Assembly (NCBI GenBank): GCA_030431455.1 | Contig: JAUIJE010000002.1 | Location: 193,294-257,293, forward strand | Reading direction: 5' to 3' | Length of the DNA: 64,000 bases | Origin: a bacterium | GTDB taxonomy: Bacteria; Myxococcota; UBA727; JAUIJE01 | Part shown: positions 18,601-63,287 of the stretch, piece after piece | Numbering within the stretch: position 1 is the first letter of the stretch | Layout: each line of letters starts with the position of its first letter | Notes under the pieces: model-generated | What the model saw: the letters and a program-made list of their open reading frames with translations, nothing else | What the model was told of the DNA's origin: nothing | Databases searched by the model: none | Program-made: the position numbers and the translations under genes

Positions 18601-21600
18601 CGCGTTGCCATCGTCACACTGCTCGCCGACGTTGTTGACCAGACCGTCGCCGCAATACTCCACCACACAAGTGGACGCGCAACCGTCGCCGTCCTGAGCG
18701 TTGCCATCGTCACAGACTTCCCCGTTGTTCACGACGCCGTCGCCACAGAACTCGACCACGCAGGCCGCACTGCACCCGTCACCGTTCATGGCGTTCCCGT
18801 CGTCGCAGCCTTCTCCGTTGTTGACGATCCCGTCGCCACACACTTCGAGTCCGCACGTAGCGGAACAACCATCGCCGCTCACCGTGTTCCCATCATCACA
18901 GGCCTCAGCACCCGAGTTGTTCACCACCCCGTCACCACAGACCTCAACTACGCAAGCAGCCGTACAACCGTCGCCGCTCACCGTGTTCCCGTCGTCACAG
19001 GCCTCAGCACCCGAGTTGTTCACAACCCCGTCGCCGCAAACCTCGACCACGCAGGTCGCAGTACAACCGTCGCCGCTCACCGTGTTCCCGTCGTCACAGC
19101 CTTCGCCGTTGTTCACCGCGCCGTCACCACAGAACTCCACCTCACAAGCGGCGCTGCAACCGTCCCCCGAAACCACGTTGCCGTCGTCACAGCCTTCGCC
19201 GTTATTGACGACGCCGTCGCCACACACTTCAAGCCCACACCCTGCCGAACAGCCGTCACCGCTCACCGTGTTTCCGTCGTCGCAAGCCTCGGCACCAGAG
19301 TTGTTCACAACCCCGTCGCCACAGACCTCGACCGCACAAGCAGCCGTACAACCATCACCGTTGGCGGTGTTCCCGTCGTCACAGGCCTCACCATTGTTGA
19401 CCGTGCCGTCACCGCAGAACTCGACCACACAGGCAGCGCTGCAGCCGTCGCCCGAGACCACGTTTCCGTCATCACAGCCTTCACCGTTGTTCACGATCCC
19501 ATCGCCACACACTTCGAGCACGCAGGCTGCCGAACAACCATCGCCGCTCACCGCGTTCCCGTCATCGCAGGCCTCAGAGCCCGAGTTGTTCACAACCCCG
19601 TCACCACAGACCTCGACCACACATGCCGCGGTACATCCATCACCGTTCGTGCTGTTCCCGTCGTCACAAGCCTCGGTACCGGAGTTGTTCACAACCCCAT
19701 CGCCACAGACCTCGATGACGCACGCGGCAGTACAGCCGTCACCGCCTACCGTGTTGCCGTCATCACAAGCCTCAGCACCGGAGTTATTCACAGCCCCGTC
19801 GCCACAGACCTCGACCACGCACGTAGCCGTACAACCATCGCCGCTCACCGCGTTCCCGTCATCGCAGGCCTCACCATTGTTGACCGTGCCGTCACCGCAG
19901 AACTCAACCACACACGCCGCGCTGCAGCCATCGCCGCTCACCGTGTTCCCGTCGTCGCAGCCTTCGCCATTGTTGACCGTGCCGTCACCACAGAACTCAG
20001 AAACGCAGGAAGCGCTGCAACCGTCACCTGAAACAACGTTGCCGTCGTCACAACCCTCGCCGTTGTTCACGACCCCATCGCCGCACACTTCGAGCGCACA
20101 CGTTGCCGAGCAACCGTCCCCGTTCACCGTGTTCCCGTCGTCACAGCCTTCGCCGTTGTTCACCGCGCCGTCACCACAGAACTCCACCTCACAAGCGGCG
20201 CTGCAACCGTCCCCCGAAACCACGTTGCCGTCGTCGCAACCTTCACCGTTGTTCACGACCCCATCGCCACACACCTCTAGCGCACATGCAGCGGAGCATC
20301 CGTCGCCGTTCGCGACGTTCCCATCGTCGCAAGCCTCATTGCCAGAGTTGTTCACAACCCCATCGCCACAAACCTCGATGACGCACGCGGCAGTACAGCC
20401 GTCGCCGCTCACCGTGTTCCCGTCGTCACAGCCCTCACCGTTGTTCACAACCCCATCGCCACACACCTCGAGCGCACAGGTCGGTGAACAGCCATCGCCG
20501 CTGACCGTGTTTCCGTCGTCACAGGCTTCGGCACCTGCGTTGTTCACAACCCCGTCGCCACACACCTCTAGCGCACATGCAGCGGAGCATCCGTCGCCGT
20601 TCGCGACGTTCCCGTCGTCGCAAGCCTCATTGCCAGAGTTGTTCACAACCCCATCGCCACAAGCCTCGATGACGCACGCGGCAGTACAGCCATCGCCACT
20701 CACCGTGTTCCCGTCGTCGCAGGCCTCGGCACCAGAGTTATTCACAACCCCGTCGCCACAAACCTCGACCACACAAGCAGCCGTACAACCATCGCCGCTC
20801 ACCGTGTTCCCGTCGTCGCAGGCCTCACCATTGTTGACCGTTCCATCACCGCAGAACTCCGAAACGCAGGAAGCGCTGCAGCCGTCACCTGAAACCACGT
20901 TTCCGTCGTCACAGCCCTCACCGTTGTTCACAATCCCATCGCCGCACACTTCAAGCGCGCACGTCGCTGAACAGCCGTCACCGTTCGCGGTATTTCCGTC
21001 GTCGCAAGCCTCAGCACCAGAGTTATTCACAGCCCCGTCGCCGCAAACCTCCAGCACACACGCCGCCGTACAACCATCACCGCTCACCGTGTTCCCGTCA
21101 TCGCAGGCCTCGCCATTGTTGACCGTTCCATCACCGCAGAACTCCGAAACGCAGGAATCGCTGCAACCGTCGCCGGAAACCACATTTCCGTCGTCGCAAC
21201 CCTCACCGTTGTTCACAACCCCGTCGCCACAAACCTCGACCACACACGAAGCGCTGCAACCATCGCCGCTCACCGTGTTCCCGTCATCGCACGCTTCCCC
21301 GTTGTTCACCGCGCCGTCGCCGCAGAACTCGACCAAACACGCCGTGCTGCAACCGTCGCCTGAAACAACGTTCCCATCATCACAGCCTTCGCCGTTGTTC
21401 ACGATGCCATCGCCGCACACTTCGAGCGCACACGTCGCCGAGCAACCGTCCCCGCTCACCGTGTTCCCGTCGTCGCACGCTTCGCCGTTGTTCACCGCGC
21501 CGTCGCCACAAAACTCGACCACACAGGCCGCGCTGCAGCCGTCGCCCGAGACAACGTTCCCGTCGTCACAGCCTTCGCCGTTGTTGACGATCCCATCGCC

Positions 21601-23019
21601 ACACACTTCGAGCACGCAGGCTGCCGAACAACCATCGCCGCTCACCGTGTTGCCATCGTCGCAAGCCTCGGCACCGGAGTTGTTCACCACACCATCGCCG
21701 CAAACCTCGACCACGCACGTCGCCGAGCAACCGTCCCCGTTCAAGGTGTTCCCGTCGTCGCACGCTTCCCCATTGTTCACCGTGCCATCGCCACAGAACT
21801 CGACCACGCAGGCCGCACTGCAACCGTCACCGTTCACGGTGTTCCCGTCGTCACAGCCTTCGCCGTTGTTGACGACGCCGTCGCCACACACCTCGAGCTG
21901 ACAGGCCGTGCTGCAACCGTCGCCGTTGATGGTGTTGCCGTCGTCGCAGGCCTCGGCGCCGTCGTTGTTGACCACGCCGTCGCCGCAGAACTCCAACATG
22001 CAGCCGGCGTTGCAGCCGTCGCCCGCGTCGGTGTTGCCGTCGTCGCAGGCTTCGCCGCTGTCCACCGTTCCGTCGCCGCAGACCGCTTCGACAAGACACG
22101 CGGCCGAGCAGCCGTCGCCGTCGACCACGTTGCCGTCGTCGCACTCTTCGCCGGCGTCGACGTTGCCGTCGCCGCAGGCAGGCTCGATGGTGCAGGTGGC
22201 CGAACAGCCGTCGCCGTCAATGAGGTTGCCGTCGTCGCATTGTTCGCTGGCTTGCACGATGCCGTCGCCGCAGGCGCTGGGCTCGTCGTTGTAGGTGATG
22301 AACAACCGGGGGGTGTAGTAGGTCGAGTCCCACGCGTAGACGCGGGCTTCGCCGCCGAGGGCTTCGTCTTGGAGGCGGATCAGCCAGCCGTGGTGGTTGG
22401 CGGGATCGGCGGCGGCCACGGCGACGTCGGGGGTGACATCGAAGCTGAGCACGCCGTTGGTGCCGTTGGTGAGGTGTACGCTGTCGGTGGGCGCGGCGGC
22501 GTGGGGGTACGGCGGGTTGTTGAGCGACCATTCGTCCTCGGGGGCGCAGTTGAGGCCGCCGTTGTAGACGTTGGTGTCGTTGGCGCAGTTGAAGGTCGCG
22601 TTGTGCTCGACCCACGGCTGCAACATGCGGTGGATCTCGATGGGTTGGCCGCCGGTGGGCAGGTTGCGGGCGTTGCGGCGGAAGATGAAGTCGAGGCGGG
22701 CGGAGACCAGCTGTTTGCCCTGCAGCGACGTGGCCATGTCGTCGGCGTCAAACTTGATCACCGCTTTGTAGCCGCCGCCGTTGCTTTGGATGAAGAGGAT
22801 CTCGTTCCAGCCGAAGTTCTTGTTGGCTTTGTTGCCACCGCGAAGGTGGGTGTCGCCGATGGGCAACAGCTGGATCTCATGGGTCACTGCCGCGCGGTCA
22901 CGTGCCGAGGGCACCGCGTCGACGTCGAGGACCGCGCTGTCCGCGCAGGCGTTGGCCAAAAGAGTGAAGGAGGCCAACACGCTCGCGCGGGCGGCGAGCG
23001 ACAGCTCAAACTTGTGCAT
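15685..23019 (-). CDS. Giant secreted protein (2444 aa). The N-terminal domain is followed by ~60 tandem myxobacterial Cys-rich repeats (CGDGxVNxGExCDDGN...GDGCSxxC) and a C-terminal RCC1-like beta-propeller.
   Basis: It has a signal peptide. The repeat unit is ~28 aa and carries six Cys. The C-terminus has RCC1/BLIP-II-like repeats (CWG...HTCGL). The opposite-strand P/S-rich ORFs such as 18701..21901 are artefacts of the symmetric repeats. Confidence 0.92.
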   Translation of the reverse strand: MHKFELSLAARASVLASFTLLANACADSAVLDVDAVPSARDRAAVTHEIQLLPIGDTHLRGGNKANKNFGWNEILFIQSNGGGYKAVIKFDADDMATSLQGKQLVSARLDFIFRRNARNLPTGGQPIEIHRMLQPWVEHNATFNCANDTNVYNGGLNCAPEDEWSLNNPPYPHAAAPTDSVHLTNGTNGVLSFDVTPDVAVAAADPANHHGWLIRLQDEALGGEARVYAWDSTYYTPRLFITYNDEPSACGDGIVQASEQCDDGNLIDGDGCSATCTIEPACGDGNVDAGEECDDGNVVDGDGCSAACLVEAVCGDGTVDSGEACDDGNTDAGDGCNAGCMLEFCGDGVVNNDGAEACDDGNTINGDGCSTACQLEVCGDGVVNNGEGCDDGNTVNGDGCSAACVVEFCGDGTVNNGEACDDGNTLNGDGCSATCVVEVCGDGVVNNSGAEACDDGNTVSGDGCSAACVLEVCGDGIVNNGEGCDDGNVVSGDGCSAACVVEFCGDGAVNNGEACDDGNTVSGDGCSATCALEVCGDGIVNNGEGCDDGNVVSGDGCSTACLVEFCGDGAVNNGEACDDGNTVSGDGCSASCVVEVCGDGVVNNGEGCDDGNVVSGDGCSDSCVSEFCGDGTVNNGEACDDGNTVSGDGCTAACVLEVCGDGAVNNSGAEACDDGNTANGDGCSATCALEVCGDGIVNNGEGCDDGNVVSGDGCSASCVSEFCGDGTVNNGEACDDGNTVSGDGCTAACVVEVCGDGVVNNSGAEACDDGNTVSGDGCTAACVIEACGDGVVNNSGNEACDDGNVANGDGCSAACALEVCGDGVVNNAGAEACDDGNTVSGDGCSPTCALEVCGDGVVNNGEGCDDGNTVSGDGCTAACVIEVCGDGVVNNSGNEACDDGNVANGDGCSAACALEVCGDGVVNNGEGCDDGNVVSGDGCSAACEVEFCGDGAVNNGEGCDDGNTVNGDGCSATCALEVCGDGVVNNGEGCDDGNVVSGDGCSASCVSEFCGDGTVNNGEGCDDGNTVSGDGCSAACVVEFCGDGTVNNGEACDDGNAVSGDGCTATCVVEVCGDGAVNNSGAEACDDGNTVGGDGCTAACVIEVCGDGVVNNSGTEACDDGNSTNGDGCTAACVVEVCGDGVVNNSGSEACDDGNAVSGDGCSAACVLEVCGDGIVNNGEGCDDGNVVSGDGCSAACVVEFCGDGTVNNGEACDDGNTANGDGCTAACAVEVCGDGVVNNSGAEACDDGNTVSGDGCSAGCGLEVCGDGVVNNGEGCDDGNVVSGDGCSAACEVEFCGDGAVNNGEGCDDGNTVSGDGCTATCVVEVCGDGVVNNSGAEACDDGNTVSGDGCTAACVVEVCGDGVVNNSGAEACDDGNTVSGDGCSATCGLEVCGDGIVNNGEGCDDGNAMNGDGCSAACVVEFCGDGVVNNGEVCDDGNAQDGDGCASTCVVEYCGDGLVNNVGEQCDDGNAIANDGCSDICVIEFCGDGEVNNATETCDDGNAVPGDGCDELCVTEYCGDGVVNNGGTEACDDGNVVAGDGCDSTCVVEFCGDGVVNNGGTEACDDGNALDGDGCSSSCGIETAVCGDGVIQNGEACDDGNTAPGDGCFNCAVEFCGDGVKNNGEGCDDGNTLSGDGCAEDCVIEFCGDGITNDRNEECDDASFWGGYGCSAVCKIEFCGDEVVNNTEEECDDGNTISGDGCDASCQAEVCGDGLLNDGGAEVCDDGNATNGDGCSSECLVEGCGDGVLSSPEGCDDGNLVNGDGCSASCVIEYCGDGITNNVSEECDDGNTVSVDGCSSTCTVEFCGNEIGNPGEECDDGNDLPNDGCGPTCKIEFCGDGIVNNVLESCDDGNTTSGDGCSDTCVVENCGDGVEAGLEQCDDGNLVDGDGCSAACKLESCAPNPCTDGGLCIEGPNGPMCCPNNDGCEGFSSFDVRGERVCTLVNGQPICMYWGESAYVQYFPELSTIYLTSIVTGMGHFCGNDVAGEVHCWGADNEGQASPPPDLNGRLVAGDRYTCSLALDGTTTCWGVIDYAPTTLFMDLDAGPNHVCGLSQGLWECWGPGAADFAGEWPNTTIVSLDTSDEHQCGLTVDGNVACWGPFTAPSLSAPAGTFIDFAFREEKGCATNDQGSITCWGRTKTGIEKNVPDERLYGPRVGAGLACARAPGTTGRLVCWNDVIAGQSSPPPVRFRSIEAAGSRTCGITTDGTVRCWGADPGYGGPAPWLSYYQLAISANRTCGYRGNGVECWGKTLPPFSAAGGVTKLAASDFGACALRNDGTLECKGWTSGGGPPDLIYDDVSVASGVGCAVHEFDGAIVCWGGVSPYVPSYVPASEGPFVKVATVGLVVCGTLPNNTVKCFQGASASSTYSPPGAFKKVVGAVGASRHCGLRVNNEIECWGSAEARYGENDSPPGPFKDVAAGAHHTCGLRFNGEVACWGAD
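17470..22270. repeat. Nucleotide-level tandem repeats (~84 bp) encoding the Cys-rich repeat array within the giant gene
   Basis: There are dozens of near-identical units. Blocks such as gtgttcccgtcgtcacagccttcgccgttgtt recur. Confidence 0.8.
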
Positions 23020-43724: not shown

Positions 43725-44375
43725 GTGTTTTTCGCGTTCCTCTCCCTGCCCCTCGAGAAGAAAGACGAGCCGGCGCCGCGGTCGGACGAAGAGCTGATGG
43801 CCGCGTACCGCGACGGCGAGGTCGCCGCGTTTCGGGAGCTGGTGCGTCGTCACGAAAAGCCGGTGTACCGGTTCTGCCTGCGGTCGTTGGGCCGGCCCGA
43901 GGCCGCCGCCGACGCGGCCCAAGAGGTCTTTTTGCGGGTGGTGAAGTACGCCCCCAAGTGGGAACACAAGGCGAAGTTCACGACGTGGATGTACACCATC
44001 GCGCGCAACTACTGCATCGACGCGTCCCGCAAGGCGGTCCACCGGCGCACCGAGTCGCTCAACGAAAAGCTCGGCCGTGACGACGAAGGCGGCGCCGAAC
44101 GGCTCGACCAGGTCAAAGACGAGGGCCCCGACCAAGGGCGCCTCGTCGACAGCCGCCGCATCCGCGAGGTGGTGGACGCGGCCTTGGCCGAGCTCCCCGA
44201 GGAGCAGCGCGAGGTGTTCTGCCTGCGGCAATACAGCGGGCTGTCGTTCAAGGACATTGCCCTGGCGGTGGACGCGGGGGAGAACACCGTGAAGTCGAGG
44301 ATGCGTTACGCCCTCACCAGCTTGAGAAAAGCCTTGCTGCAAGCGGGGTTGGAGCTGCCGGGGGGGTCGTCGTGA
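43725..44375 (+). CDS. ECF-family RNA polymerase sigma factor
   Basis: It has sigma-70 region 2 (FRELVRRHEKPVYRFCLR) and region 4 (LPEEQREVFCLRQYSGLSFKDIA). Confidence 0.88.
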   Translation: MFFAFLSLPLEKKDEPAPRSDEELMAAYRDGEVAAFRELVRRHEKPVYRFCLRSLGRPEAAADAAQEVFLRVVKYAPKWEHKAKFTTWMYTIARNYCIDASRKAVHRRTESLNEKLGRDDEGGAERLDQVKDEGPDQGRLVDSRRIREVVDAALAELPEEQREVFCLRQYSGLSFKDIALAVDAGENTVKSRMRYALTSLRKALLQAGLELPGGSS

Positions 44376-44469: not shown

Positions 44470-46161
44470 GTGTCCGCCATGACCACCGCACGTGAAGACC
44501 TGATGCTCGCGTATGTCTACGACGAGCTGTCCGACGAGGACAAAGCATCGTTCGAGACCCTGCTCGACGAGGACGCGGACCTGCGCGCGGAGGTCGATGG
44601 GCTGCTCGCCACCCGGCAGCTGCTCGACGAGGACATGGCGTTCGGCCAGGAGAGCGGGCTCGACCTGCCCCCCGCGCACCTCGCCGACGCGATCCTGCGG
44701 GCCGAAGCGTTGGCCCGGCCGGCCGCGCTGCGCGAAGCGGTGGTGGAGCATGCCCAGGTGCGCCGTGACGGTCCCTCGTCGTCGACCAAGGGCTGGGCCC
44801 CCAAGCTGATGACCTGGCTGCTCGGCGGCTCGGTCGCGCTCGGCGGCGCGGCCGCGGCGGTGTTTTTCCTCGTCGCCGACGCGGAGCACGCGACCGAGGC
44901 GCCCGCGGTGGCGCGCGCGACCCCGGAGATGGCCGACGGGGCGCCCGCGGGGGCCGACCGGTCCGCGCGCGGGGCGGCCCAGGAAAAGGCGTTCGCGTTC
45001 GACGGCGACGACGACGACCGGGCCAACGCCGAGGCCGAGGCCGACCTCGACCAGGTCGCGGCCGTCGAGGAGTCCGTGGACAAAGCGGGCAGCCGCCGCC
45101 CCGCGGACAAAAAGGACGCCAAAGCCGAGGACCCCGGGGACGGCTACGTGCAAGGGCTCGAACAGAACGCCCACGGCCGCGCCTACCCCACCGCCCCGCC
45201 CCCGCCCGCGGACACGCCAAAGGCTGAGCCCGCGCCCGAGCAGAAAAAAGTTCAGGTCACGGCCGCGCCGGCCAAGAGCGGCAACGTCTACCAGCGCGAC
45301 GACCTCGAGCCCCCCGGGGTGATGGTCGGCGAGGACGCGGCCGAGGGGGGATCGACCGGCCGGATCGCGGACATGGACAACGCCATGGGCGCCGGCGGCG
45401 GCTTCGCCCTCGGGCGCGAGCAGCAGCGCACCGACCGGCGCAAGGACGCGGCCCCCGCGCCCGAGCCCATCGCCGAGCGCAAGACCAAGCCCAAGACCAA
45501 GTCGGCCAAGCGCCGCGCCCGTGCGGTGCCGCCCGCGCAATCCTTCGGCAGCACGGTGAGCAAAGGCGACGTGGTGAAAGGCCCGCAGCGGCTGAGCAAA
45601 AAGGAGCGCGAGTTCCTCCAGGGCGCCGGCAAAAAGAAGGCCCAGGACGCCCGGCTCGACGACGAAGCGGAGCTGCGCAAGCTCGAGATGGAGCGGGACA
45701 GCTTCCAAGCCGAGATCACCCTCGCCGGCGCCAACCGCGCGTTCCGGACCAAGCACTACCGCGACGCGGCGCGCATGTACCGCCAGGCCCGCGAGGAAGA
45801 CCGGGCCGCGGGCCGGCTCGGCCTGCTCGCCCACATCGGTGAGGTCCAAGCGCTGCACAAGCTCGGCCGGCACCAGGAAGCGCTCAAGGTGTTCGGCTTG
45901 GTCCAGCGCGGCGGGGCCAATGAGACCTCGGCCGACGCCTACCTCGCCGCGGCCCAGAGCGCCGAGGCCCTGCAAGACTTTGCCCGCGCCGAGATGCTGT
46001 ACCGGGACGTGGCGGCGGTGAAATCCAAAAACCAGGTCGCCAAGCGGGCCCTGGTGCGGGTGCAGCGCCAACGCAAGGCGCGCGCGGAGACGTCCTACGA
46101 GGCCGAGGCCGCTGCCGACGAAGCGCCGGCCGAGGCGCCCGCGGCCGATTCCAAAGAGTAA
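44470..46161 (+). CDS. Anti-sigma factor-like membrane protein with a C-terminal TPR region
   Basis: It sits immediately downstream of the ECF sigma gene. It has an N-terminal anti-sigma-like helix, a TM segment and TPR motifs near the C-terminus. Confidence 0.7.
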   Translation: MSAMTTAREDLMLAYVYDELSDEDKASFETLLDEDADLRAEVDGLLATRQLLDEDMAFGQESGLDLPPAHLADAILRAEALARPAALREAVVEHAQVRRDGPSSSTKGWAPKLMTWLLGGSVALGGAAAAVFFLVADAEHATEAPAVARATPEMADGAPAGADRSARGAAQEKAFAFDGDDDDRANAEAEADLDQVAAVEESVDKAGSRRPADKKDAKAEDPGDGYVQGLEQNAHGRAYPTAPPPPADTPKAEPAPEQKKVQVTAAPAKSGNVYQRDDLEPPGVMVGEDAAEGGSTGRIADMDNAMGAGGGFALGREQQRTDRRKDAAPAPEPIAERKTKPKTKSAKRRARAVPPAQSFGSTVSKGDVVKGPQRLSKKEREFLQGAGKKKAQDARLDDEAELRKLEMERDSFQAEITLAGANRAFRTKHYRDAARMYRQAREEDRAAGRLGLLAHIGEVQALHKLGRHQEALKVFGLVQRGGANETSADAYLAAAQSAEALQDFARAEMLYRDVAAVKSKNQVAKRALVRVQRQRKARAETSYEAEAAADEAPAEAPAADSKE

Positions 46162-46240
46162 GCTTCCGCACCCGGGCCCACGGCCCCACCACGATCACGC
46201 GGTCTCACGCCCCTTTGCCCGCGATGTGGCCGCCCGCAGA

Positions 46241-46260
46241 ATAAACGAACGCTCATTTAT
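46241..46260. promoter_or_regulatory. Near-palindrome ATAAACGAACGCTCATTTAT, copy 1 of a duplicated operator-like element
   Basis: 16 of 20 positions are self-complementary. The same element occurs as a perfect palindrome at 49679..49698. It is AT-rich in a ~70% GC background. Confidence 0.4.
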
Positions 46261-46309
46261 CTTTCACCCCGCGGGTAGTCAGCTTGGCCCCCGCGCCTAC
46301 AACGGACAC

Positions 46310-46597
46310 ATGATGAACGACACGTCCGCATTCCACTCCGCCACCCGGCTGTCCGGGGCGTTGGCTTTCGAGGCGCTGCGCGAGCGTGGCTGGTCGGCCG
46401 AAGACCTGGTGCTGTTCACCACCGCCGTGCGCGGGGTGGAGATCGAGCCCAACGACGACCACACTGGCGTGCACGTCACGCTGCAGTGGGACCAAGAAGC
46501 CGAGGTCGATCGCGACCTGTTCGACAAGATCGGCCAAGACGACCTGCCGCTCTTTTTCTGCGCGTTCACCGGCCGGCGCGAGCCGCCCCAAGCCTGA
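46310..46597 (+). CDS. Hypothetical protein (95 aa)
   Basis: The start MMNDTSAFHS lies 50 bp downstream of the palindrome copy. Confidence 0.45.
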   Translation: MMNDTSAFHSATRLSGALAFEALRERGWSAEDLVLFTTAVRGVEIEPNDDHTGVHVTLQWDQEAEVDRDLFDKIGQDDLPLFFCAFTGRREPPQA

Positions 46598-46651
46598 GAC
46601 CGCCACCCGGCTGAGGCCGCCCTGGGCGCCCCGGCAGGGCCGGGCCGCGGG

Positions 46652-47176
46652 TCATCGACGCCACAAGAGCGAGCTCACCACCCGGCGGCCGGTCACGTCC
46701 ACGTTAGAACCATTTTCTAGAAGGGCGGCGCCCCCCGGGTTCAGGGCCCGGCGGCGCTCGTGGCAAGACAGGCACGCCCCGGTGATGGTCCCGACCAAAA
46801 AGTAATCGGGGGGGTCGCCGGCGGCCGCCACCCGCGCCTCCGCCAAGCGGTCGCGCAGCTGGTCGAGGTACCGGTCGAACAGCGGGTGGTTGGACACCGC
46901 CTCGCCCCGCAACGCGAGCTCCGCGGCGGCCTCCTCCATCTTTTTGAGGGTGCTGAGCACCGTGGCCTGGGTCGTGGCGTCGCGCGGCCCGGCCAAGGTC
47001 TCGTCGAGCACCTGGACCCCATCGGCCAGCCGGTCCATGGTGTCTAGAATTTCATTCTGGTCGTAGTAGCGAAACTGCGGGCCGTAAAAGGTCGCCCGGG
47101 CCGCGCCCTCGGTGGCGCAGCCCGACAAAAGCGCACCGCCCACCAACACCCCCACCATCGACAGCCGAATCCACAT
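46652..47176 (-). CDS. Cytochrome c'-like (class II) haem lipoprotein
   Basis: It has a lipobox (LLSGC) and a single C-terminal CxxCH (CLSCH) in a helical protein, which is the typical cytochrome c' architecture. Confidence 0.7.
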   Translation of the reverse strand: MWIRLSMVGVLVGGALLSGCATEGAARATFYGPQFRYYDQNEILDTMDRLADGVQVLDETLAGPRDATTQATVLSTLKKMEEAAAELALRGEAVSNHPLFDRYLDQLRDRLAEARVAAAGDPPDYFLVGTITGACLSCHERRRALNPGGAALLENGSNVDVTGRRVVSSLLWRR

Positions 47177-47190
47177 GGTCTGGTCCTTTC

Positions 47191-47649
47191 CTAGGCCGCG
47201 GCCACCTGCCCGGTCTGGTCGACCATCCGCAGCAAGAACCGAAACGGCAGGGTCTTTTTTTCGCGGTTGTCATCGATGAGCAAGGTCAAAAGGTCGGTCG
47301 ACGTCACCAGGCCGACCAAGCGGTCGCTGGGCCCCAGGATCGGAATCGCGTCGATCTTGTGTTCGACCATGGTCGCGGCCAACGACGACACGCTCGTGTC
47401 CGGCGTCGCGGTCAGGGGGCACAGGCTCATGGCATCGGCCACGAACACATCCGCGACCGCCCGCCCGTCGTCGTCGATGTCGGTGCGCAACAGGATGTCG
47501 CGGTCGGACACGATGCCGACCAGGCGGTCGCCTTGCAGCACCGGCAGGTGGCGCACGTTCTCCCGGCGCATCAACGCATCCGCCACCCGCAGCGAAAGCG
47601 CAGGGGGCACGGTCAGCACGTGTCGGGTCATGGTCGCGTCGGCTCGCAT
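47191..47649 (-). CDS. CBS-domain protein
   Basis: It has tandem CBS motifs (HLPVL..LVGIVSDRDI; IPIL...LVGLVTSTDL). Confidence 0.8.
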   Translation of the reverse strand: MRADATMTRHVLTVPPALSLRVADALMRRENVRHLPVLQGDRLVGIVSDRDILLRTDIDDDGRAVADVFVADAMSLCPLTATPDTSVSSLAATMVEHKIDAIPILGPSDRLVGLVTSTDLLTLLIDDNREKKTLPFRFLLRMVDQTGQVAAA

Positions 47650-47775
47650 CGGCACCTCCGCCCCTCCCCATGGCAAGTATTGCGCCCGCGCCGGGTCGCG
47701 TCCTGGCCGCGATCGCCGCGACCCGGTGGGCGGCCTCGCCCGGTTCTTGGCCCCCCGCTGGGCCGGTTGGCCCGG

Positions 47776-49680
47776 CTAGGGGCGCAGGGTCGAAAAGCCC
47801 GCCGCCTCCCGCACAAACTCGCTCCCCCGCGCGGCTTTGGACAGGTACAGCCGGTGGTGTTCGATTTTGCGGTGGTCGGACGCGCGCAGGTACAGGTCGA
47901 GCGCGTCGTCCCCGTCGAGGTCACCGGCCCAGACCAGGACCGCCTCGGCCCCGTCGCCCTCGGGCGCGTAAAAGAGCGTCTGGCGGGTGCGGTCGATCTT
48001 GAGCGTGACCCGCAGCCCCCCGCCGTCGTGGGGCACGGCCTTGAGCTCGGCGGTGCTGTCCCCGAACGCGAGCGTGACCGGCGCCCCCGCGGACAGCGGC
48101 TGACCGAGCGCGGCCGCAGGCCGGACCTCGGCCGCGCGCACCGGCCCCGGCGCGAACTGCAGCGCCCCGGTGAACAACAACGTGGCCGGACAAGGCGCCT
48201 CGATGCGGACCGCGGGGCCGCGGTCGCCGGCGACCTCGGTCTGGTCGACGTGCACGCGGCGCAGGCCGCCGTCGCAGAGCGCGAGCGCGGAGTCGACCGC
48301 GGGGAGCGCTTCGGTCTCGGCGCGCACGAACGTCCCGGGGACAAACACCGCGCCCGGGTTGGTCACCCGGCGCGCCCGAAACAGCGCCTGGTCCGCGGCG
48401 CGGGCTTGTTGCTGCGCGTCGGTGAGGCCCGTTTTTGTCAGCTGTTGTTCGTGGGCCAGGCAACGGCCGGCGGCCAGCGTGCGCACCAACCGGCGGGCCG
48501 GGTCCTGGTCCATGCCGGGCCAGAGGTGGAGGCCACGCCGCGCGCCGCCAGGCTGGGACAAGGCCTGGCGTGCGCCGCCGCCGGGCACCCACGCGGCGAA
48601 CACCCGGTCCGGGCCGCAGCGGAGCCGAAACCGCCGCAGGGCGAGCATCCGCGTGTCGCTGACCGCGTCGAGGGTGCAGGCGGCGGGGGCGCCGCGATTT
48701 TTCGGCAGCTTGGCCCAGGTCTCCGCCACCGCTTGGGCAAAGGGACTGTCCGCGGGGCTCACCTCGAGCCGCGCGGGCAAGGCATCGCGGCAGGTGCGCG
48801 GCAACGAAAAGGCATGGGGGCCGAGGCCGGCGGCCTCCGCCCCGGTGAGTTCGCGCGTGTTCTGCAGGGCGCGCGCCCCGTCGTACAAGATGCGCGCGTC
48901 GCCGCCGGGCTGGCGCACGATGTCGGTGACCGGCCGGGTGTCGCCGGCGGTGCCCTGGCCCGAGAGCGCGGCGAGCGCGGCCTCGACGTTGTTTTCGCCC
49001 GCGGCCAGGGCGGTGATGGTGCGGCCCGAGCGGACCTCGACCGCCCGGGCCACGGTGGCCGCGCCTTGTTCGTGGTGAAAGACCGTCCAGTCCTTGTTCA
49101 GCTCGGTCCAGCGGTGGTTGTGCACATAGAGCACGACCTCGACCCCGGCCTCGCGCATCATGTCGGCGAAGACCGCGTCGACCACCTGCCCGCGGCACAG
49201 CCACCGCTCCTCGTCGCGCAGGCCCGCTTGCCAGTCCGCGCCTTGCGCGCCGAACCCCGACCAGTCGTCGCACGCGGCCTCGCCCTCGCGCCAGATGGCC
49301 CGCTGCCGGTCGGTGAAATCCTCGGGCAACGTCGCGAGCACGTCGGGGAGCGCGCGCAGCCGGCGCAGGCCCTCCCGGCGGCGCGACAGGTCCTGCACGC
49401 TCACCCCCCGGTCGACAAGACCGCGGAAGATGCCGGTGGCCGGGTAGGTGCCCTCCTGCCAGGCGGGCTCGTTGCTGAGGGCGGTGCGCGACTGCGACCG
49501 CTGGGTCTCGGCGTGCTCCTGCACCACCAAGGCGATGCGACCAGAACGATTTTCTAGTCCACGGGACGCGGCCCGCTGTGGGCCCAGACAGCCGGCCACG
49601 GCGACCCAGACCGCCAGGCACGCGGACAAGGCCCCCCAGGACGCGGGGCGGGGGGCGGGGGAATGGAAAGAGTCATTCAT
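47776..49680 (-). CDS. Large lipoprotein, hypothetical
   Basis: It has a lipobox (VAVAGC). The start ATG overlaps the end of the perfect 20-bp palindrome. Confidence 0.75.
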   Translation of the reverse strand: MNDSFHSPAPRPASWGALSACLAVWVAVAGCLGPQRAASRGLENRSGRIALVVQEHAETQRSQSRTALSNEPAWQEGTYPATGIFRGLVDRGVSVQDLSRRREGLRRLRALPDVLATLPEDFTDRQRAIWREGEAACDDWSGFGAQGADWQAGLRDEERWLCRGQVVDAVFADMMREAGVEVVLYVHNHRWTELNKDWTVFHHEQGAATVARAVEVRSGRTITALAAGENNVEAALAALSGQGTAGDTRPVTDIVRQPGGDARILYDGARALQNTRELTGAEAAGLGPHAFSLPRTCRDALPARLEVSPADSPFAQAVAETWAKLPKNRGAPAACTLDAVSDTRMLALRRFRLRCGPDRVFAAWVPGGGARQALSQPGGARRGLHLWPGMDQDPARRLVRTLAAGRCLAHEQQLTKTGLTDAQQQARAADQALFRARRVTNPGAVFVPGTFVRAETEALPAVDSALALCDGGLRRVHVDQTEVAGDRGPAVRIEAPCPATLLFTGALQFAPGPVRAAEVRPAAALGQPLSAGAPVTLAFGDSTAELKAVPHDGGGLRVTLKIDRTRQTLFYAPEGDGAEAVLVWAGDLDGDDALDLYLRASDHRKIEHHRLYLSKAARGSEFVREAAGFSTLRP

Positions 49681-49698
49681 AAACGAGCGCTCGTTTAT
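49679..49698. promoter_or_regulatory. Perfect 20-bp palindrome ATAAACGAGCGCTCGTTTAT, copy 2
   Basis: It is perfectly self-complementary. Its last two bases form the AT of the start codon of the 634-aa lipoprotein gene. Confidence 0.45.
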
Positions 49699-49765
49699 TC
49701 AGGGAAACAAGGGGCGGGGCCACAGGGCCGGCGGCACGCGGGCAACACGCCGGTGCAACGGCTGG

Positions 49766-50776
49766 TCAGCTGCTTTTGGCCAGGGCGGCGCGGGCCGCGG
49801 ACGGGCTTTGGCCGGTCCAGCGCTTGTACGCCCGGGAAAAGGCGGTGGCGTCGCTGTAGCCGAGCAAAAACGCGATGTCGGTGAAGCTGAGCGTGGGCTC
49901 TTGCAGGTACCCCGCGGAGAGCTCCTGGCGCACCGCCTCGACAAGCTCTTGGTGGACCAGACCCTCGGCCTTGAGCCGGCGCTGCAACGTGCGGGGGCTG
50001 AGCTGCAGCCGGGTCGCGACCGCGTCCAGACCGGGGTCGTCGGCCAGCAGCTGAATGATCGCGGACTTGGCCCGGGTCCCGAAGTCGTCCTGGGGCAGGG
50101 CCGCGATCATCTTTTGCGCGGTCTGATCGAGCCGCTCGGACAGCGCCGCGTCGGGGGGATGGACCTGCACCCGCATGACCTCGGGGCTGACCACCAGCGC
50201 GCTCTCCACCGCGCCGGTGCGCACGGTGACCCCGTCGAACACGTCGGGCACCGGCTTGCCCTCGACCGCCGGCTCGGTGAGCCAGACCGTGCTCAGGGTG
50301 AACTGCTGGTCGGTCATCGCTTGGGCCGCCCGGTACACCGCCGCGAGGAGGAAGTGCACCGACACCGCGTGGGGCTCTGCCCCCGGGCGTTTGCGCACCC
50401 CGGCGAGATAACTGCCCTCGGGGGTCTCGGCGGTGAAGAACACCCCGGTCTGGTTGACCAGCTGCAGATACCGGCCGAACCGCTTGAGCCCGTCGCGCAC
50501 GTTGGCGCTCGCCCCGCACGCGTAGCGCACCACCCCCACCGCCCCCTGGTCGAGGGCGGCCGCGGCCCCGAGGCGCAGGCCGATCCAAGGATCGCCCGAG
50601 TCGCGCTCGAGGGCGTTGCACACCGTGCGCAACACCCCGGTGTCGAAGCGCTGGTTGACGAGCTCGGCCGACATCGCCAGGCCGGCCTCGTCGAGGATCT
50701 TGGCCCCGTCGAGCCCGAGGGCCCCCGCGGTCACACCGAGCTGCAGCAAATACGAACCGTCGACGGTTGAGGTCAC
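49766..50776 (-). CDS. AraC-family transcriptional regulator
   Basis: It has a C-terminal AraC-type HTH (FTDIAFLLGYSDATAFSRAYKRWTGQSP). Confidence 0.88.
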   Translation of the reverse strand: MTSTVDGSYLLQLGVTAGALGLDGAKILDEAGLAMSAELVNQRFDTGVLRTVCNALERDSGDPWIGLRLGAAAALDQGAVGVVRYACGASANVRDGLKRFGRYLQLVNQTGVFFTAETPEGSYLAGVRKRPGAEPHAVSVHFLLAAVYRAAQAMTDQQFTLSTVWLTEPAVEGKPVPDVFDGVTVRTGAVESALVVSPEVMRVQVHPPDAALSERLDQTAQKMIAALPQDDFGTRAKSAIIQLLADDPGLDAVATRLQLSPRTLQRRLKAEGLVHQELVEAVRQELSAGYLQEPTLSFTDIAFLLGYSDATAFSRAYKRWTGQSPSAARAALAKSS

Positions 50777-52870: not shown

Positions 52871-53479
52871 ATGGCGGGCACGCGACGCACCCAAGGCATC
52901 CTCGGCGGCCGCAGCGACGACGTGGTCGAACGCGTGCTCGAGGCCGCGCTCGCGGAGGTCGCCCGCGCGGGCTACGCGGGGTTTCGAATCGCGGACGTGG
53001 CCACCCAGGCGAACGTGCACAAGACCACGATTTACCGGCGTTGGCCGGACCGCGCGGCGTTGGTCGGGGCCGTCGTGGACCGCATGCGCCAGCCGATCGA
53101 ACAGACCCCGCTGCCCGACACCGGCGCGCTCGAGACCGACCTTTTGGAAGCCTTTTCGCGGCGGGCGACCTTTGGGCGCAAACGCGAAGGCCAAGCCTGG
53201 GCCATGCTGCTCGCCGAGCGGCACAGCGAAGAGGTCAGCGCACTCATCGGCCACACCGTGTTTGCTCGCCGCGACGCGTGGCACGCGATGATCGAGCGCG
53301 CCGCCGACCGGGGCGAGATACCGCGCGACACCGACGGGCCGCGGGTGCTGCATCTCATCCGGGCGCTGGTCGATGCCCAGCCCGGCGATGCCGCGTGGTT
53401 GGGCGTCGCGGTGCGCACGGTGCTCGCCGGCGTGCGCGCGGGCACGGTGCTGCGCGAGACCGGACCCGCCGCGCGCTAG
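52871..53479 (+). CDS. TetR-family transcriptional regulator
   Basis: It has an N-terminal TetR HTH (FRIADVATQANVHKTTIYRRWPDR). Confidence 0.88.
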   Translation: MAGTRRTQGILGGRSDDVVERVLEAALAEVARAGYAGFRIADVATQANVHKTTIYRRWPDRAALVGAVVDRMRQPIEQTPLPDTGALETDLLEAFSRRATFGRKREGQAWAMLLAERHSEEVSALIGHTVFARRDAWHAMIERAADRGEIPRDTDGPRVLHLIRALVDAQPGDAAWLGVAVRTVLAGVRAGTVLRETGPAAR

Positions 53480-54045
53480 CCCGGGTCGGTGAGCACGCCC
53501 TCGAGCAACAGCGTCGCGAGCCTGCGCGCGCGCGCGGGGCCGACCTTGGCCACCGCCCCCTTGAGCGTGATGAAGTCCTCTTCGGTGAAGTCGGGACGCA
53601 ATGTTCCTGCTTCGATGCCCGCGCGTACGAGGGGGCCCACCGCCTCTTGCACGAGGGCGTTGCTGCGCGAGATCGAGGCCGGGCCCTCCGCGTCCACCAT
53701 CGCGCGCAACGCGCTCGACAGGCCGGTGTTGGTCGTGACCTCCTCGACGAACAGGTCCAAAAACCGGCGCAACGCGACGTCGGGTGCATGCGCGCGCAGC
53801 AACCCGTCCGCCTGCTCACAGATGCGGGTCATGCGGTCGCGGTGCGCGGCCTCGAGCAGATGGGCGCGGGTGGGGAAGTGCCGGTAGAGCGTGCCGATCC
53901 CGACCCCGGCGTCTTTGGCGATGCCCTCGAGCGATGCCTGCGGGTCCTGGCCAAACGCCGCGTGGGCCGCGGCGAGGATTTTGCCGCGATTGCGCTGGGC
54001 GTCGCGACGCTTTGGTTTGTCCGCGGGACGGGTCATGCTTGACAA
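53476..54045 (-). CDS. TetR-family transcriptional regulator
   Basis: It has a TetR HTH (LEGIAKDAGVGIGTLYRHFPTR). Confidence 0.88.
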   Translation of the reverse strand: MSSMTRPADKPKRRDAQRNRGKILAAAHAAFGQDPQASLEGIAKDAGVGIGTLYRHFPTRAHLLEAAHRDRMTRICEQADGLLRAHAPDVALRRFLDLFVEEVTTNTGLSSALRAMVDAEGPASISRSNALVQEAVGPLVRAGIEAGTLRPDFTEEDFITLKGAVAKVGPARARRLATLLLEGVLTDPG

Positions 54046-54046
54046 C

Positions 54047-54089
54047 CGGAGGGCCCTCCGTTTATTTCAGAAAAGCGGAGGTGCCTCCG
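54047..54089. promoter_or_regulatory. Two palindromic operator candidates, CGGAGGGCCCTCCG and CGGAGG-TG-CCTCCG
   Basis: The first is a perfect 14-bp palindrome at 54047..54060. The second has 6-bp perfect arms at 54076..54089. Both sit in the 63-bp divergent region between the TetR and aldo/keto reductase genes. Confidence 0.45.
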
Positions 54090-54108
54090 TTCAGGAAGGA
54101 TAGCAGAC

Positions 54109-54957
54109 ATGCCCGATACGTTTCGCCTGGGCCAAGACTTGGTGGTGCGCCGTTTGGGATTTGGCGCCATGCGGCTTCCGACCGCAGGCTGGTTTGGACC
54201 GGCCCGCGATCCCGAGACCGGCCGCGCCGTGTTGCGCCGGGCCATCGCCCGCGGGGTGAACCACATCGACACCGCCGCGTTTTACCAGAGCGGCGACGGC
54301 AGCGTGCGCGCCAACGACCTCATCCGGGAGGCCCTTGCCCCCTATCCGGGGTTGGTCATCGCGACCAAGGTCGGTCCCACCCTCGGGCCGGACGGCCTCG
54401 CCCCGGGAGGGCCCGAGGACCTGCGGCCCGCGGTCGAGGAGAACCTCGCGATGTTGGGCCTCGACCGATTGGACCTCGTCTACCTGCGCATCGGGCACAT
54501 GGGCGTGCCCCACGGTGAGTCCCTGGGCAAACGCTTCGAAGTGTTGGCCCGGCTGCGCGACGAGGGTCTCATCCGCCACCTGGGGGTGAGCAACATCGAC
54601 ACGGGGCAGCTCGCGGAGGCGCGTTCGATCGCGCCCGTGGTCGCGGTGCAGAACCATTTTCACCCTGGTCACCAGGACGACCGCGCCCTGCTCGACACCT
54701 GCGCGGCCGCGGGCATCGCGTTTGTGCCGTACTTCCCGCTCGGGGGTGGCCGGGGTGACCCGCCCGCGCGGCTCGCGGAGGTCGCCGCCCGCCACGAGGC
54801 ATCCCCCGCCCAGGTCGCGCTCGCCTGGCTTCTGGCCCTCGCGCCGGTGACCCTGGCGATCCCGGGCACGGGGTCTTTGGCCCACCTCGACGAGAATCTC
54901 GACGCGGATGCGCTCACCCTCACCGCCCAGGACCTGGCGGACCTCGGCGACGGGTGA
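54109..54957 (+). CDS. Aldo/keto reductase
   Basis: It has AKR family motifs (GAMRL, NHIDTA, the LVYLRIGH-like, HLGVSN). Confidence 0.9.
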   Translation: MPDTFRLGQDLVVRRLGFGAMRLPTAGWFGPARDPETGRAVLRRAIARGVNHIDTAAFYQSGDGSVRANDLIREALAPYPGLVIATKVGPTLGPDGLAPGGPEDLRPAVEENLAMLGLDRLDLVYLRIGHMGVPHGESLGKRFEVLARLRDEGLIRHLGVSNIDTGQLAEARSIAPVVAVQNHFHPGHQDDRALLDTCAAAGIAFVPYFPLGGGRGDPPARLAEVAARHEASPAQVALAWLLALAPVTLAIPGTGSLAHLDENLDADALTLTAQDLADLGDG

Positions 54958-61363: not shown

Positions 61364-61978
61364 GTGTCGATGGATGTGCGCATGTCGCGCCCCGCGTTCC
61401 CCCCTGAATACCCCGCGCCGGATGAGCGCACGCCCCTCGACCTCGACGCCCACCGCGCGTTGATCCCGGACGAGGCGGTGCTCAAGGGGATGTATTTCAA
61501 CGACCTGCGCAAAGTGATGCGGGAGGCCGGCCACCCGTCGCGCAACACCCAGCACTACACGCTGTTCAAAGACTACCCGCAGCGCGACTATTTCGAGCTG
61601 CTCGTCGAGGCCGCCCAGACCGTGTACCCGGACTTGCCCCTGGCCCGCGCGCTGCGCGAGGTGGGCCGTTCGGCCTACCCGACCTTGGCCAGCTCGACGA
61701 TCGGCCGGGTGGTGTTCGGCGTGCTCGGCGGCAACCTGCAAGCGATCTTCCGCGTCGCCAAAAAGGGCTACGACGTCTCGATGAACCTCACCGAGGTCAA
61801 GACCCTCGAGACCTCACCCCACCACGCGGTGGTGCAGCTCGATCGTTGCTTCGTGTTCCCCCACCAGTACCAGGTCGGGGTGTTCGAAGGCGCGCTGGCC
61901 ACCGCCGGCCGCGACGGCGAGGTGCGCCCCCTCCCCTTGAGCCCCACGTCGGTGCGCCTGTACATCGTCTGGGACTGA
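61364..61978 (+). CDS. Hypothetical protein, possibly from a myxobacterial paralogous family
   Basis: 204 aa. No catalytic motifs were recognised. It follows the MoxR gene. Confidence 0.55.
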   Translation: MSMDVRMSRPAFPPEYPAPDERTPLDLDAHRALIPDEAVLKGMYFNDLRKVMREAGHPSRNTQHYTLFKDYPQRDYFELLVEAAQTVYPDLPLARALREVGRSAYPTLASSTIGRVVFGVLGGNLQAIFRVAKKGYDVSMNLTEVKTLETSPHHAVVQLDRCFVFPHQYQVGVFEGALATAGRDGEVRPLPLSPTSVRLYIVWD

Positions 61979-62016: not shown

Positions 62017-62685
62017 CTACCCGGGGGGGCGCAAGCCTTCCAGCAGGATTGTGATGACGTTGGCCCCAAGGGAGAGCACGTCCCCGACGTCCCCGCCCGA
62101 CAGCACCATGAACGACAGGTGTTCGATGGTGCCGAGCAACAGGTTGGCGGAGGTCTCGGGGGGCACGTCGTCGCGGATGAGCCCCGCCTCCCGGGCCACG
62201 AGGGTCAGGCGCACCGCGGCCGCGGTGGTCTCGTCGACGAAGGCCTGCACCACCGGGTGGCCGAGCCGGCGTTCGCGCAGGTAGACCAACGTGGCTTGGT
62301 CGTGCTCGAGCACCGCCCCGGTCAATGACCCGGCGAGGTCCTCGTAGGCCGCGAGCATGTCCGCGTCGGTCTTGGCGTGGTGCAAGCCCGCCTCCGCCGC
62401 GGTCAGCGCCGCCCGCAACGCGGCGAAAAAGGGCGCGAACAGCACCGCGAGCAGCTCGTCGCGGTTTTTGAAGTACTGGTAGAAGCTGCCCTTGGCGATG
62501 CCGGCCGCTTTGGTGATCTGGTCGATGGTCACCGCCCGGACCCCGTGCTCCAAAAACAGCGAGGCCCCCGCCTCCACGATCCGGGCGATCTTTTCTTCTC
62601 GGTTTTTCGCGCGTTTGCCCCCGGCCGGGCCAGGCCGGTGGGCGCGTTCGGCCGTCTTGGGCAAAAACGAGGGCTTGTCAGACAT
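62017..62685 (-). CDS. TetR-family transcriptional regulator
   Basis: It has a TetR HTH (IDQITKAAGIAKGSFYQYFKNRDEL). Confidence 0.85.
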   Translation of the reverse strand: MSDKPSFLPKTAERAHRPGPAGGKRAKNREEKIARIVEAGASLFLEHGVRAVTIDQITKAAGIAKGSFYQYFKNRDELLAVLFAPFFAALRAALTAAEAGLHHAKTDADMLAAYEDLAGSLTGAVLEHDQATLVYLRERRLGHPVVQAFVDETTAAAVRLTLVAREAGLIRDDVPPETSANLLLGTIEHLSFMVLSGGDVGDVLSLGANVITILLEGLRPPG

Positions 62686-62729
62686 GGGTCCTTTATAATA
62701 TGACTGTATGGTCACTATTTGGAGGCGAC

Positions 62730-63287
62730 ATGATCGGGATTCCGCTGGGGCTGCTCTATTCCAATGCGTCTGAATGGCTCATTCACAAGCATCTCCTGCA
62801 CGGCCGCGGGAAGAACAAGAAGAGCTTCTGGTCCTTTCACTTCCACGAGCACCACAAAGCATCCCGCCAAGCGGACATGCTCGACGACGATTACCACCGT
62901 CCGCTCTTTTCCGCGTGGGATGCGCAGACCAAAGAGGTCGTGACCCTCACCGCCGCGGCGGTGGCCCACGCCCCCCTGCTCCCGGTGGCGCCCTTTTTTA
63001 CCCTCACCGTGTGGTGGTCGGCCTACAACTACTACCGGGTGCACAAGCGCTCGCACCTCGACCCCGCCTGGGCCAAAGAGAACCTCGCGCACCATTGGGA
63101 CCACCACATGGGCCCCGACCAAGACAAGAACTGGTGCGTGACCCACCCCTTCTTCGACTACCTCATGGGCACCCGCGAGGAGTACCTCGGCACCGACGAG
63201 GAGCGCGCGACCCGCGACAAGCGCGCGCGGTTTTTTGCCCAGAAGGCGGCCGAAAAGGGCGGCCCGACCACCCGCGCCGCGGCCTGA
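62730..63287 (+). CDS. Small fatty-acid hydroxylase / carotene-hydroxylase-like membrane protein
   Basis: It has His boxes (HKHLLHG, HFHEHH, HHWDHH). The RBS GGAGG lies 4 nt upstream of the ATG. It is divergent from the TetR gene. Confidence 0.75.
   Translation: MIGIPLGLLYSNASEWLIHKHLLHGRGKNKKSFWSFHFHEHHKASRQADMLDDDYHRPLFSAWDAQTKEVVTLTAAAVAHAPLLPVAPFFTLTVWWSAYNYYRVHKRSHLDPAWAKENLAHHWDHHMGPDQDKNWCVTHPFFDYLMGTREEYLGTDEERATRDKRARFFAQKAAEKGGPTTRAAA

Follow-up and report, generated by a model that had tools for sequence, protein, structure and literature searches.

Two 20-bp palindromes in a myxococcotal genome as probable operators of a TetR-family repressor

In a 64,000-nt stretch of DNA (hereafter the window; ~70% GC) from a bacterium of the Myxococcota (assembly GCA_030431455.1, contig JAUIJE010000002.1, positions 193,294 to 257,293), two copies of an AT-rich 20-bp palindrome are each located ahead of a gene. 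The sequence class to which these palindromes are assigned is tightly associated, across phyla, with the starts of TetR-family regulator genes. Both palindromes are probably operators of a homodimeric TetR-family repressor of the FadR/FatR/Bm3R1-like class. The palindrome had been noticed in a first-pass annotation of the window, made from the sequence alone; the observation is real, though it was partly mis-described there.

One of the palindromes, ATAAACGAGCGCTCGTTTAT at 49679–49698 (no strand), is referred to as copy 2 hereafter. Direct reading of the sequence bears out the annotation in that this is a perfect, two-fold symmetric 20-bp palindrome. Read on the minus strand, its final AT is the AT of the ATG (49680..49678) at which the open reading frame (ORF) of a 634-aa lipoprotein starts; this 2-nt overlap had also been pointed out, and the gene callers of two independent assemblies place the start at this ATG. 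The other palindrome, copy 1, is ATAAACGAACGCTCATTTAT at 46241–46260 (no strand). Its presence ahead of a second gene had been correctly recognized, while its identity with copy 2 is 18/20 and not 16/20 as had been reported. The differences are G>A at positions 9 and 15, and eight of the ten base pairs of the dyad are symmetric. Copy 1 is separated by 49 nt from the ATGATG at 46310, where a 95-aa product begins (MMNDTSAFHS...). No third copy was found in the window with up to five mismatches, and no match with up to three mismatches was obtained in 100 dinucleotide-preserving shuffles of the window; chance would therefore not be expected to yield either copy.

Palindrome class and its TetR neighbours

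The pattern ATAAAYGARCGYTCRTTTAT, which spans the four half-sites present in the window, was scanned against 185,579 genomes, one per species. At least 118 loci matched, compared with a rough chance expectation of about nine under the assumption of equal base frequencies. Thus, the element is not limited to two copies, a possibility that the first-pass annotation had allowed for. The loci span at least 12 bacterial phyla, including Bacteroidota, Chloroflexota, Gemmatimonadota, Acidobacteriota, Myxococcota, Actinomycetota, Pseudomonadota, Bacillota, Verrucomicrobiota and Fibrobacterota, and one archaeal metagenome-assembled genome. The commonest form among the 118 loci listed is ATAAAYGAACGTTCRTTTAT, and the core of the class can be written as AAYGA-N4-TCRTT within a 20-bp dyad.

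For these 118 loci, the ORFs located within 2.5 kb of the palindrome were clustered. A TetR-family regulator of about 200 aa was found at 90 loci, and TetR was the sole regulator family that recurred. At 83 loci, the start of the TetR-family ORF lies between −200 and +120 nt of the palindrome, with inferred palindrome-to-start distances of 1–62 nt (median, 15 nt). The search for an associated regulator family, which had been proposed as a check, therefore yields TetR. Chance matches are expected chiefly in AT-rich genomes. The loci with a GC content of at least 55% (41 of those listed) were counted separately. An adjacent TetR start was found at 34 of them, and a TetR gene within 2.5 kb at one more; five loci are cut at the edge of the sequence block, and one has no TetR gene. 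Accordingly, 34 of the 36 testable loci have an adjacent TetR start. At the TetR-less locus (L048, from Streptosporangium), the palindrome is located ahead of an ORF whose product looks like a multi-pass membrane transporter.

The TetRs at the palindromes comprise two main subfamilies (64 and 13 loci) and a few singletons, and at least two of the palindrome-linked subfamilies share less than 30% mutual identity in single-linkage clustering. When compared with the named NCBIfam equivalogs, none of them reached a cut-off. A protein search starting from one associated TetR of the myxobacterial type gave 2,073 relatives. The association was also examined in the reverse direction, using four TetR orthologues that were picked by protein similarity alone and whose contigs were fetched without the DNA pattern. 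A variant palindrome is present in each of them, 10–15 nt upstream of the start codon, and in three it is positioned between TTGnnn and a TAYTTA/TATTAT −10 box starting at palindrome position 18. The recurrence at TetR gene starts in many phyla and this reverse test strongly support the earlier suggestion that the palindrome is the site of a dimeric helix-turn-helix (HTH) repressor.

When the sites are oriented toward the TetR gene, positions 9 and 15 of the class vary, with C6 found in 65% and A15 in 79%, and the commonest variants are asymmetric, combining C6 with A15. Copy 1, read toward its downstream gene, shows this C6/A15 combination, the orientation preferred ahead of TetR genes elsewhere, and its substitutions relative to copy 2 (positions 9 and 15) fall at class-degenerate positions. 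A 20-mer identical to copy 2 is present at locus L099, beside a TetR gene start in a divergent intergenic region, and variants with a GC-richer centre also adjoin TetR genes at L099, L073, L024, L034 and L118. At L030 (4040–4080) and L099 (926–962), the ~40 nt between two divergently oriented genes are taken up by the palindrome, and start codons are found 6–11 nt away on both sides. This layout implies two face-to-face leaderless promoters with one common operator, and from these examples start codons placed hard against the operator can be regarded as normal for the class. A tblastn comparison of 18 window proteins with the 118 loci listed gave nothing informative, and a literature search with exact 16-mers of the operator found no paper.

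The palindrome might instead be bound by a regulator of another family, such as a LacI-type protein or the AraC protein whose gene precedes copy 2. In favour of this, 67 nt separate the end of the AraC gene from copy 2, a cognate TetR was not found for the window sites, and the centre GAGCGCTC is that of the symmetric lac operator. On the other hand, neither LacI-type nor AraC regulators recur among the 118 loci listed, in contrast to TetR. AraC-family sites are usually direct repeats, not perfect dyads, and 40 loci carrying distant metagenome relatives of the AraC protein contained no copy of the palindrome with up to three mismatches. We therefore give this explanation a low probability.

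Known operators, proposed mechanism and folding of the sites

Two TetR-family repressors of Bacillus subtilis have operators that resemble the class. The FadR/YsiA consensus is WTGAATGAMTANTCATTCAN, and the TetR-family protein binds this FadR box, a pseudo-palindrome of 20 bp, as a pre-formed dimer (bioRxiv 10.1101/2023.10.16.562645). The FatR probe is TACGGAATGAATATTCATTCCCTTT (supplement of PMC3814354). FatR and Bm3R1 are 'fatty-acid-displaced' TetR-family repressors of CYP102 genes; their operators are placed near the transcription start or downstream of it, and the ligand relieves a steric block or roadblock. Bm3R1 represses by roadblock, and the FatR site is located downstream of the transcription start and ahead of the Shine-Dalgarno sequence (PMC3814354).

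The FatR operator GGAATGAATATTCATTCC, like the class a perfect or near-perfect dyad, agrees with it in length, in spacing and in the AATGA-N4-TCATT core: the probe contains GGAATGAAT/ATTCATTCC, and the class (A)TAAATGAAC/GTTCATTTA(T). The outer bases differ, being GG/CC in FatR and TA/TA in the class, and, unlike the FatR and Bm3R1 systems, the window has neither a cytochrome P450 gene nor a repressor gene adjacent to the sites. The operator of Bm3R1 from Bacillus megaterium, CGGAATGAACGTTCATTCCG, is identical to the class consensus in its 14 central bases. As for FadR, WTGAATGAMTANTCATTCAN is compatible with ATAAAYGARCGYTCRTTTAT at 16 of 20 positions, and FadR-type proteins (3whb, 1vi0 and 5gp9) are among the better PDB sequence matches to one associated TetR. 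FadR differs in that its box has G/C at position 3/18, where A/T is found here, and TA at the centre in place of CG, and in that it controls a fatty-acid degradation regulon, no such genes being found beside the window sites. The FadR consensus is matched at 15/20 positions by copy 1 and at 13/20 by copy 2. A third resemblance is to autoregulated modules of a TetR gene and a major facilitator superfamily (MFS) transporter gene, the TetR/AcrR 'multidrug operon repressor' layout. In Dyadobacter and at the four reverse-test loci, the palindrome is followed by the TetR gene and then by an MFS transporter gene, and the −35 and −10 boxes either flank the operator or are covered by it; the window operator differs in being detached from TetR and transporter genes and in preceding two orphans.

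Since the core matches the operators of both FatR and FadR/YsiA, the two window copies are most likely TetR-type operators. Compared with the class consensus, they have AACGA for AATGA in three of four half-sites and a GC-richer centre, and are peripheral members of the operator class. Assignment of the window sites to the FadR box WTGAATGAMTANTCATTCAN or the FatR operator GGAATGAATATTCATTCC proper was rejected: the architecture is alike, while the box itself is different. Likewise, the palindrome-associated TetRs were rejected as FadR/FatR equivalogs, scoring 45–52 bits against a cut-off of 200 for the NCBIfam FadR model NF053878.

For the two window copies we infer TetR binding, and in the same way the identity of the repressor, the mode of repression and the ligand. 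Under this model, a TetR-type dimer would sit on each palindrome and stop RNA polymerase. As in the other genomes, palindrome position 18 is the first base of a −10-like hexamer (TATCTT or TATGAA), and the block might be exerted by covering these weak elements; alternatively, the dimer might act as a roadblock to read-through transcripts from the upstream ECF-sigma (extracytoplasmic function) and AraC operons. A small-molecule ligand would free the repressor from the DNA.

The overlap of copy 2 with the start codon had been taken to suggest translational control. This is unlikely, because start codons 1–30 nt from the palindrome are the norm for the class; in addition, the hairpin is weak, and in copy 1 the C6–G15 pair is broken without compensation. 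Viewed against the rest of the class, the ATG overlap is best regarded as a by-product of a compact, often leaderless promoter-operator layout, and not as a separate translational device.

A more general RNA explanation, in which a hairpin sequesters the start codon of the 634-aa ORF or terminates the AraC and anti-sigma-like transcripts, is also given only a small probability. An 8-bp stem closed by a GCGC loop, and taking in the AU of the AUG, can be folded from copy 2 (−10 kcal/mol for 56 nt, z = −2.85), and both copies lie downstream of co-directional genes. In contrast, the folding of copy 1 is at the shuffle level (z = −0.92) and its C6–A15 mismatch is uncompensated. Downstream of the AT-rich stem comes AUGAAU or CUUUCA and no U-run, and a terminator scan detected nothing at either site. 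The GC-rich stem and U-run of an intrinsic (Rho-independent) terminator being absent at both sites, this candidate was discarded. No Rfam family matched in the window. Furthermore, the asymmetric common variants (C6 with A15) fit the degeneracy of protein half-sites better than an RNA stem, and an RNA element would not account for the association with TetR gene starts.

Cognate repressor, promoters and flanking sequence

Several points weigh against the TetR-operator interpretation of the window copies. The first concerns the promoters. A promoter scan found no sigma-70-like promoter around either copy, and the −35 places, which elsewhere carry TTGnnn abutting the palindrome, are occupied by CGCAGA and CCCTGA here. 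Moreover, the canonical promoter geometry cannot express the gene from ATG 49680, if that is the true start. The second concerns the repressor. No cognate repressor was found in the window by tblastn and a profile hidden Markov model, which gave generic HTH-level matches only: the window TetRs score 50–56 bits against the profile of the associated TetRs, and the training members at least 99 bits. This comparison is not a strict exclusion of the window TetRs, because the members scored for reference were also the training set of the profile, and several unrelated TetR clusters use the operator. The palindrome class was not found upstream of the three window TetR genes, two of which have different palindromes there. 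It is rare for a high-GC locus to lack a TetR neighbour (1 of 36 testable), which makes the window atypical. Third, positions 9 and 12 of both window copies are occupied by G/C, a rare state in the class (about 5%). Finally, both target genes are orphans, and consequently there are no orthologous loci in which the conservation of the regulation could be checked.

With respect to the start of the 634-aa ORF, an alternative is the TTG at 49629..49627 (codon 18), located 51 nt inward and 49 nt past the palindrome. The segments 46261–46309, from copy 1 to its ATG, and 49630–49678, from copy 2 to this TTG, are both 49 nt long. The equal spacing may be fortuitous, or it may point to TTG 49629 as the actual start of the gene. 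Such a start would leave the signal peptide without a charged N-region, and ATG 49680 is the choice of the gene callers on both assemblies.

The three TetR genes of the window are located at 52871–53479, 53476–54045 (minus strand) and 62017–62715 (minus strand). Their starts are 3.2, 4.3 and 13 kb from copy 2 at the nearest, and no TetR gene adjoins either site. Among the 120 listed of the 2,073 TetR relatives, none is on the 767,511-bp source contig. The repressor of the two putative operators is probably encoded outside the window.

The sequences next to two of these TetR genes were inspected. In the divergent region 54037–54108, between the TetR gene at 53476–54045 and an aldo/keto reductase gene (54109–54957, plus strand), TTGACA (54039–54044) is followed by the 20-bp near-palindrome AACCGGAGGGCCCTCCGTTT (54044–54063), and a second dyad, CGGAGGTGCCTCCG, is present at 54076–54089. 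The region of AACCGGAGGGCCCTCCGTTT is probably the own operator of this TetR; it has the outer AAACG/CGTTT in common with the window palindrome and is 4 bp wider. At 62680–62740, the TetR gene at 62017–62715 and a gene of the fatty-acid-hydroxylase family (62700–63287, plus strand) have divergent, overlapping ORF starts, and the AT-rich stretch TTTATAATATGACTGTATGGTCACTATTT around these starts may hold a promoter and an operator.

A further explanation is that the two copies are non-functional, for example remnants of promoter-operator modules from horizontally acquired DNA to which nothing binds any longer. The lack of a partner regulator nearby, the orphan status of the target genes and the start-codon geometry (−2 and 49 nt), which is at the edges of the class distribution, are all in keeping with this idea. 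It is nevertheless improbable in view of the state of the sites themselves. Copy 2 is still a perfect dyad and copy 1 is changed only at degenerate positions, whereas an AT-rich 20-mer would decay fast in a genome of 70% GC. In addition, both copies are intergenic and face gene starts, and the enclosed genes have native GC and GC3 (GC content at third codon positions).

The two sites might also be the terminal inverted repeats of a mobile cassette of 3.46 kb (46239–49700). A repeat search does report inverted arms of 22 nt that are 91% complementary and 3418 nt apart, and the four enclosed genes are all poorly conserved or orphan. However, the 'inverted' status of the arms rests on two extra bases, since each arm is itself palindromic. 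The flanks, CCCGCA and AGGGAA, show no target-site duplication, no transposase or integrase domain was found inside the cassette with Pfam, and its composition is native. The same 20-mer class also occurs as a single copy beside TetR genes in more than 80 other genomes. This explanation is accordingly considered very improbable. A miniature inverted-repeat transposable element (MITE), whose terminal repeat the palindrome might have been according to the first-pass annotation, was rejected together with other mobile elements on the same absence of duplication and transposase and on the extent of the repeat, with only 22 nt in common and two copies in 64 kb.

The extent of the similarity was evaluated with MAFFT and by Smith-Waterman alignment against shuffled sequence. 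The block common to both copies is 22 nt long (GAATAAACGA.CGCTC.TTTAT). For the flanks, 100–120 nt on each side, the local alignment scores were reached by 240 of 2000 and 345 of 2000 shuffles, i.e., the flanks are at the shuffle level, and the approximately 40 nt of common flank with a 9-nt indel that had been described find no support. The 22-nt limit and the flank alignments likewise speak against the duplicated promoter/5′-end cassette that had been deduced from it. The resemblance between MNDSFHS, with which the 634-aa ORF opens, and MMNDTSAFHS falls short of significance (BLASTP E = 45 over this segment), and BLASTP found no homology between the 95-aa and 634-aa proteins.

A short motif, TTTTCTAG, had been listed as recurring at 46713, 47043 and 49549. 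Only two exact matches exist in the window, at 46713 and 49550, and the sequence at 47043 is TCTAGAAT. With one mismatch allowed, ten occurrences were found against 8.7 expected, which does not indicate enrichment. Both exact copies (46713–46720 and 49550–49557) are inside coding sequence, where the coding strand reads CTA GAA AAY (Leu-Glu-Asn), and the pair is probably a coding-sequence coincidence. They use the rare codons CTA and GAA and form short AT-richer patches (ALLENGS and RGLENRS) in genes with otherwise high GC3.

Gene neighbourhood and implications

Copy 1 is located ahead of the 95-aa gene and copy 2 ahead of the 634-aa gene; therefore, the palindromes mark the two outer ends of a convergent gene group of 3.4 kb. 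The 95-aa gene (46310..46597, plus strand; 94 aa from the second ATG) and the 634-aa lipoprotein gene (47776..49680, minus strand) have GC3 values of the coding type (0.87 and 0.91, respectively). The 634-aa ORF has the N-terminus MNDSFHSPAPRPASWGALSACLAVWVAVAGC..., a lipoprotein-type signal, and its signal peptide ends in VAGC. Neither protein has a homologue among 5.8 billion proteins or a Pfam domain. A single-sequence structure model of the 95-aa protein is of the alpha/beta type and moderately confident (predicted local distance difference test, pLDDT, 70), and a fold search with it gave no significant match.

Between these genes, on the minus strand, are the gene of a 174-aa lipoprotein (46652..47176), which has no Pfam match, and a CBS-domain gene (47191..47676; Pfam CBS, E = 1.4e-24). 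The gaps of ~100–126 nt and 14 nt suggest that the CBS and 174-aa genes are possibly co-transcribed with the 634-aa gene. The single-sequence model of the 174-aa protein is all-helical with low confidence (pLDDT 54), and CLSCH, a CxxCH motif, is found near its C-terminus; this lipoprotein is possibly a class-II-like c-type cytochrome.

Each palindrome lies just downstream of co-directional regulator genes. Upstream of copy 1, on the plus strand, are an ECF sigma factor gene (43725..44375, assigned by Pfam) and a 563-aa gene (44470..46161) without a Pfam match, whose stop is 79 nt before the palindrome. The 563-aa product is putatively anti-sigma-like, a reading based on its position behind the sigma gene. 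Directly upstream of copy 2, and on the same strand as the 634-aa gene, is an AraC-family regulator gene (49766..50776, minus strand; Arabinose_bd and HTH_18). Transcription could read through from the ECF sigma/563-aa genes into the 95-aa gene, and from the AraC gene toward copy 2. Elsewhere in the window, a 2,444-aa ORF with 41 DUF4215 cysteine-rich repeats and an RCC1_2 repeat is located at 15685–23019 (minus strand), and a DUF2378 protein is encoded at 61364–61978; both are in line with a myxobacterial origin of this DNA.

The palindromes most likely represent ordinary gene regulation of a known kind, by a TetR operator, and neither a new mechanism nor a new type of element. What deserves attention is the breadth of conservation of the operator, the lack of a paper with its exact strings in our search, and its detached, two-ended use here. 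More speculatively, ATAAAYGAACGTTCRTTTAT, which recurs with little change in at least 12 bacterial phyla, may be among the most widely shared repressor sites, and in this genome it would be used in detached form at both entrances of the gene group, where a distantly encoded TetR would insulate the genes from read-through. A probable regulatory logic is thereby offered for four poorly characterised genes, two of which have no homologue at all, and the start codon annotated for the 634-aa gene is flagged as possibly wrong. The operator could serve in regulon prediction and in deciding which cross-reacting parts to use in, or keep out of, biosensors and circuits built on TetR. For the family as a whole, it provides a motif usable for predicting the targets of a large group of uncharacterised TetR proteins, one subfamily of which comprises more than 2,000 protein clusters.

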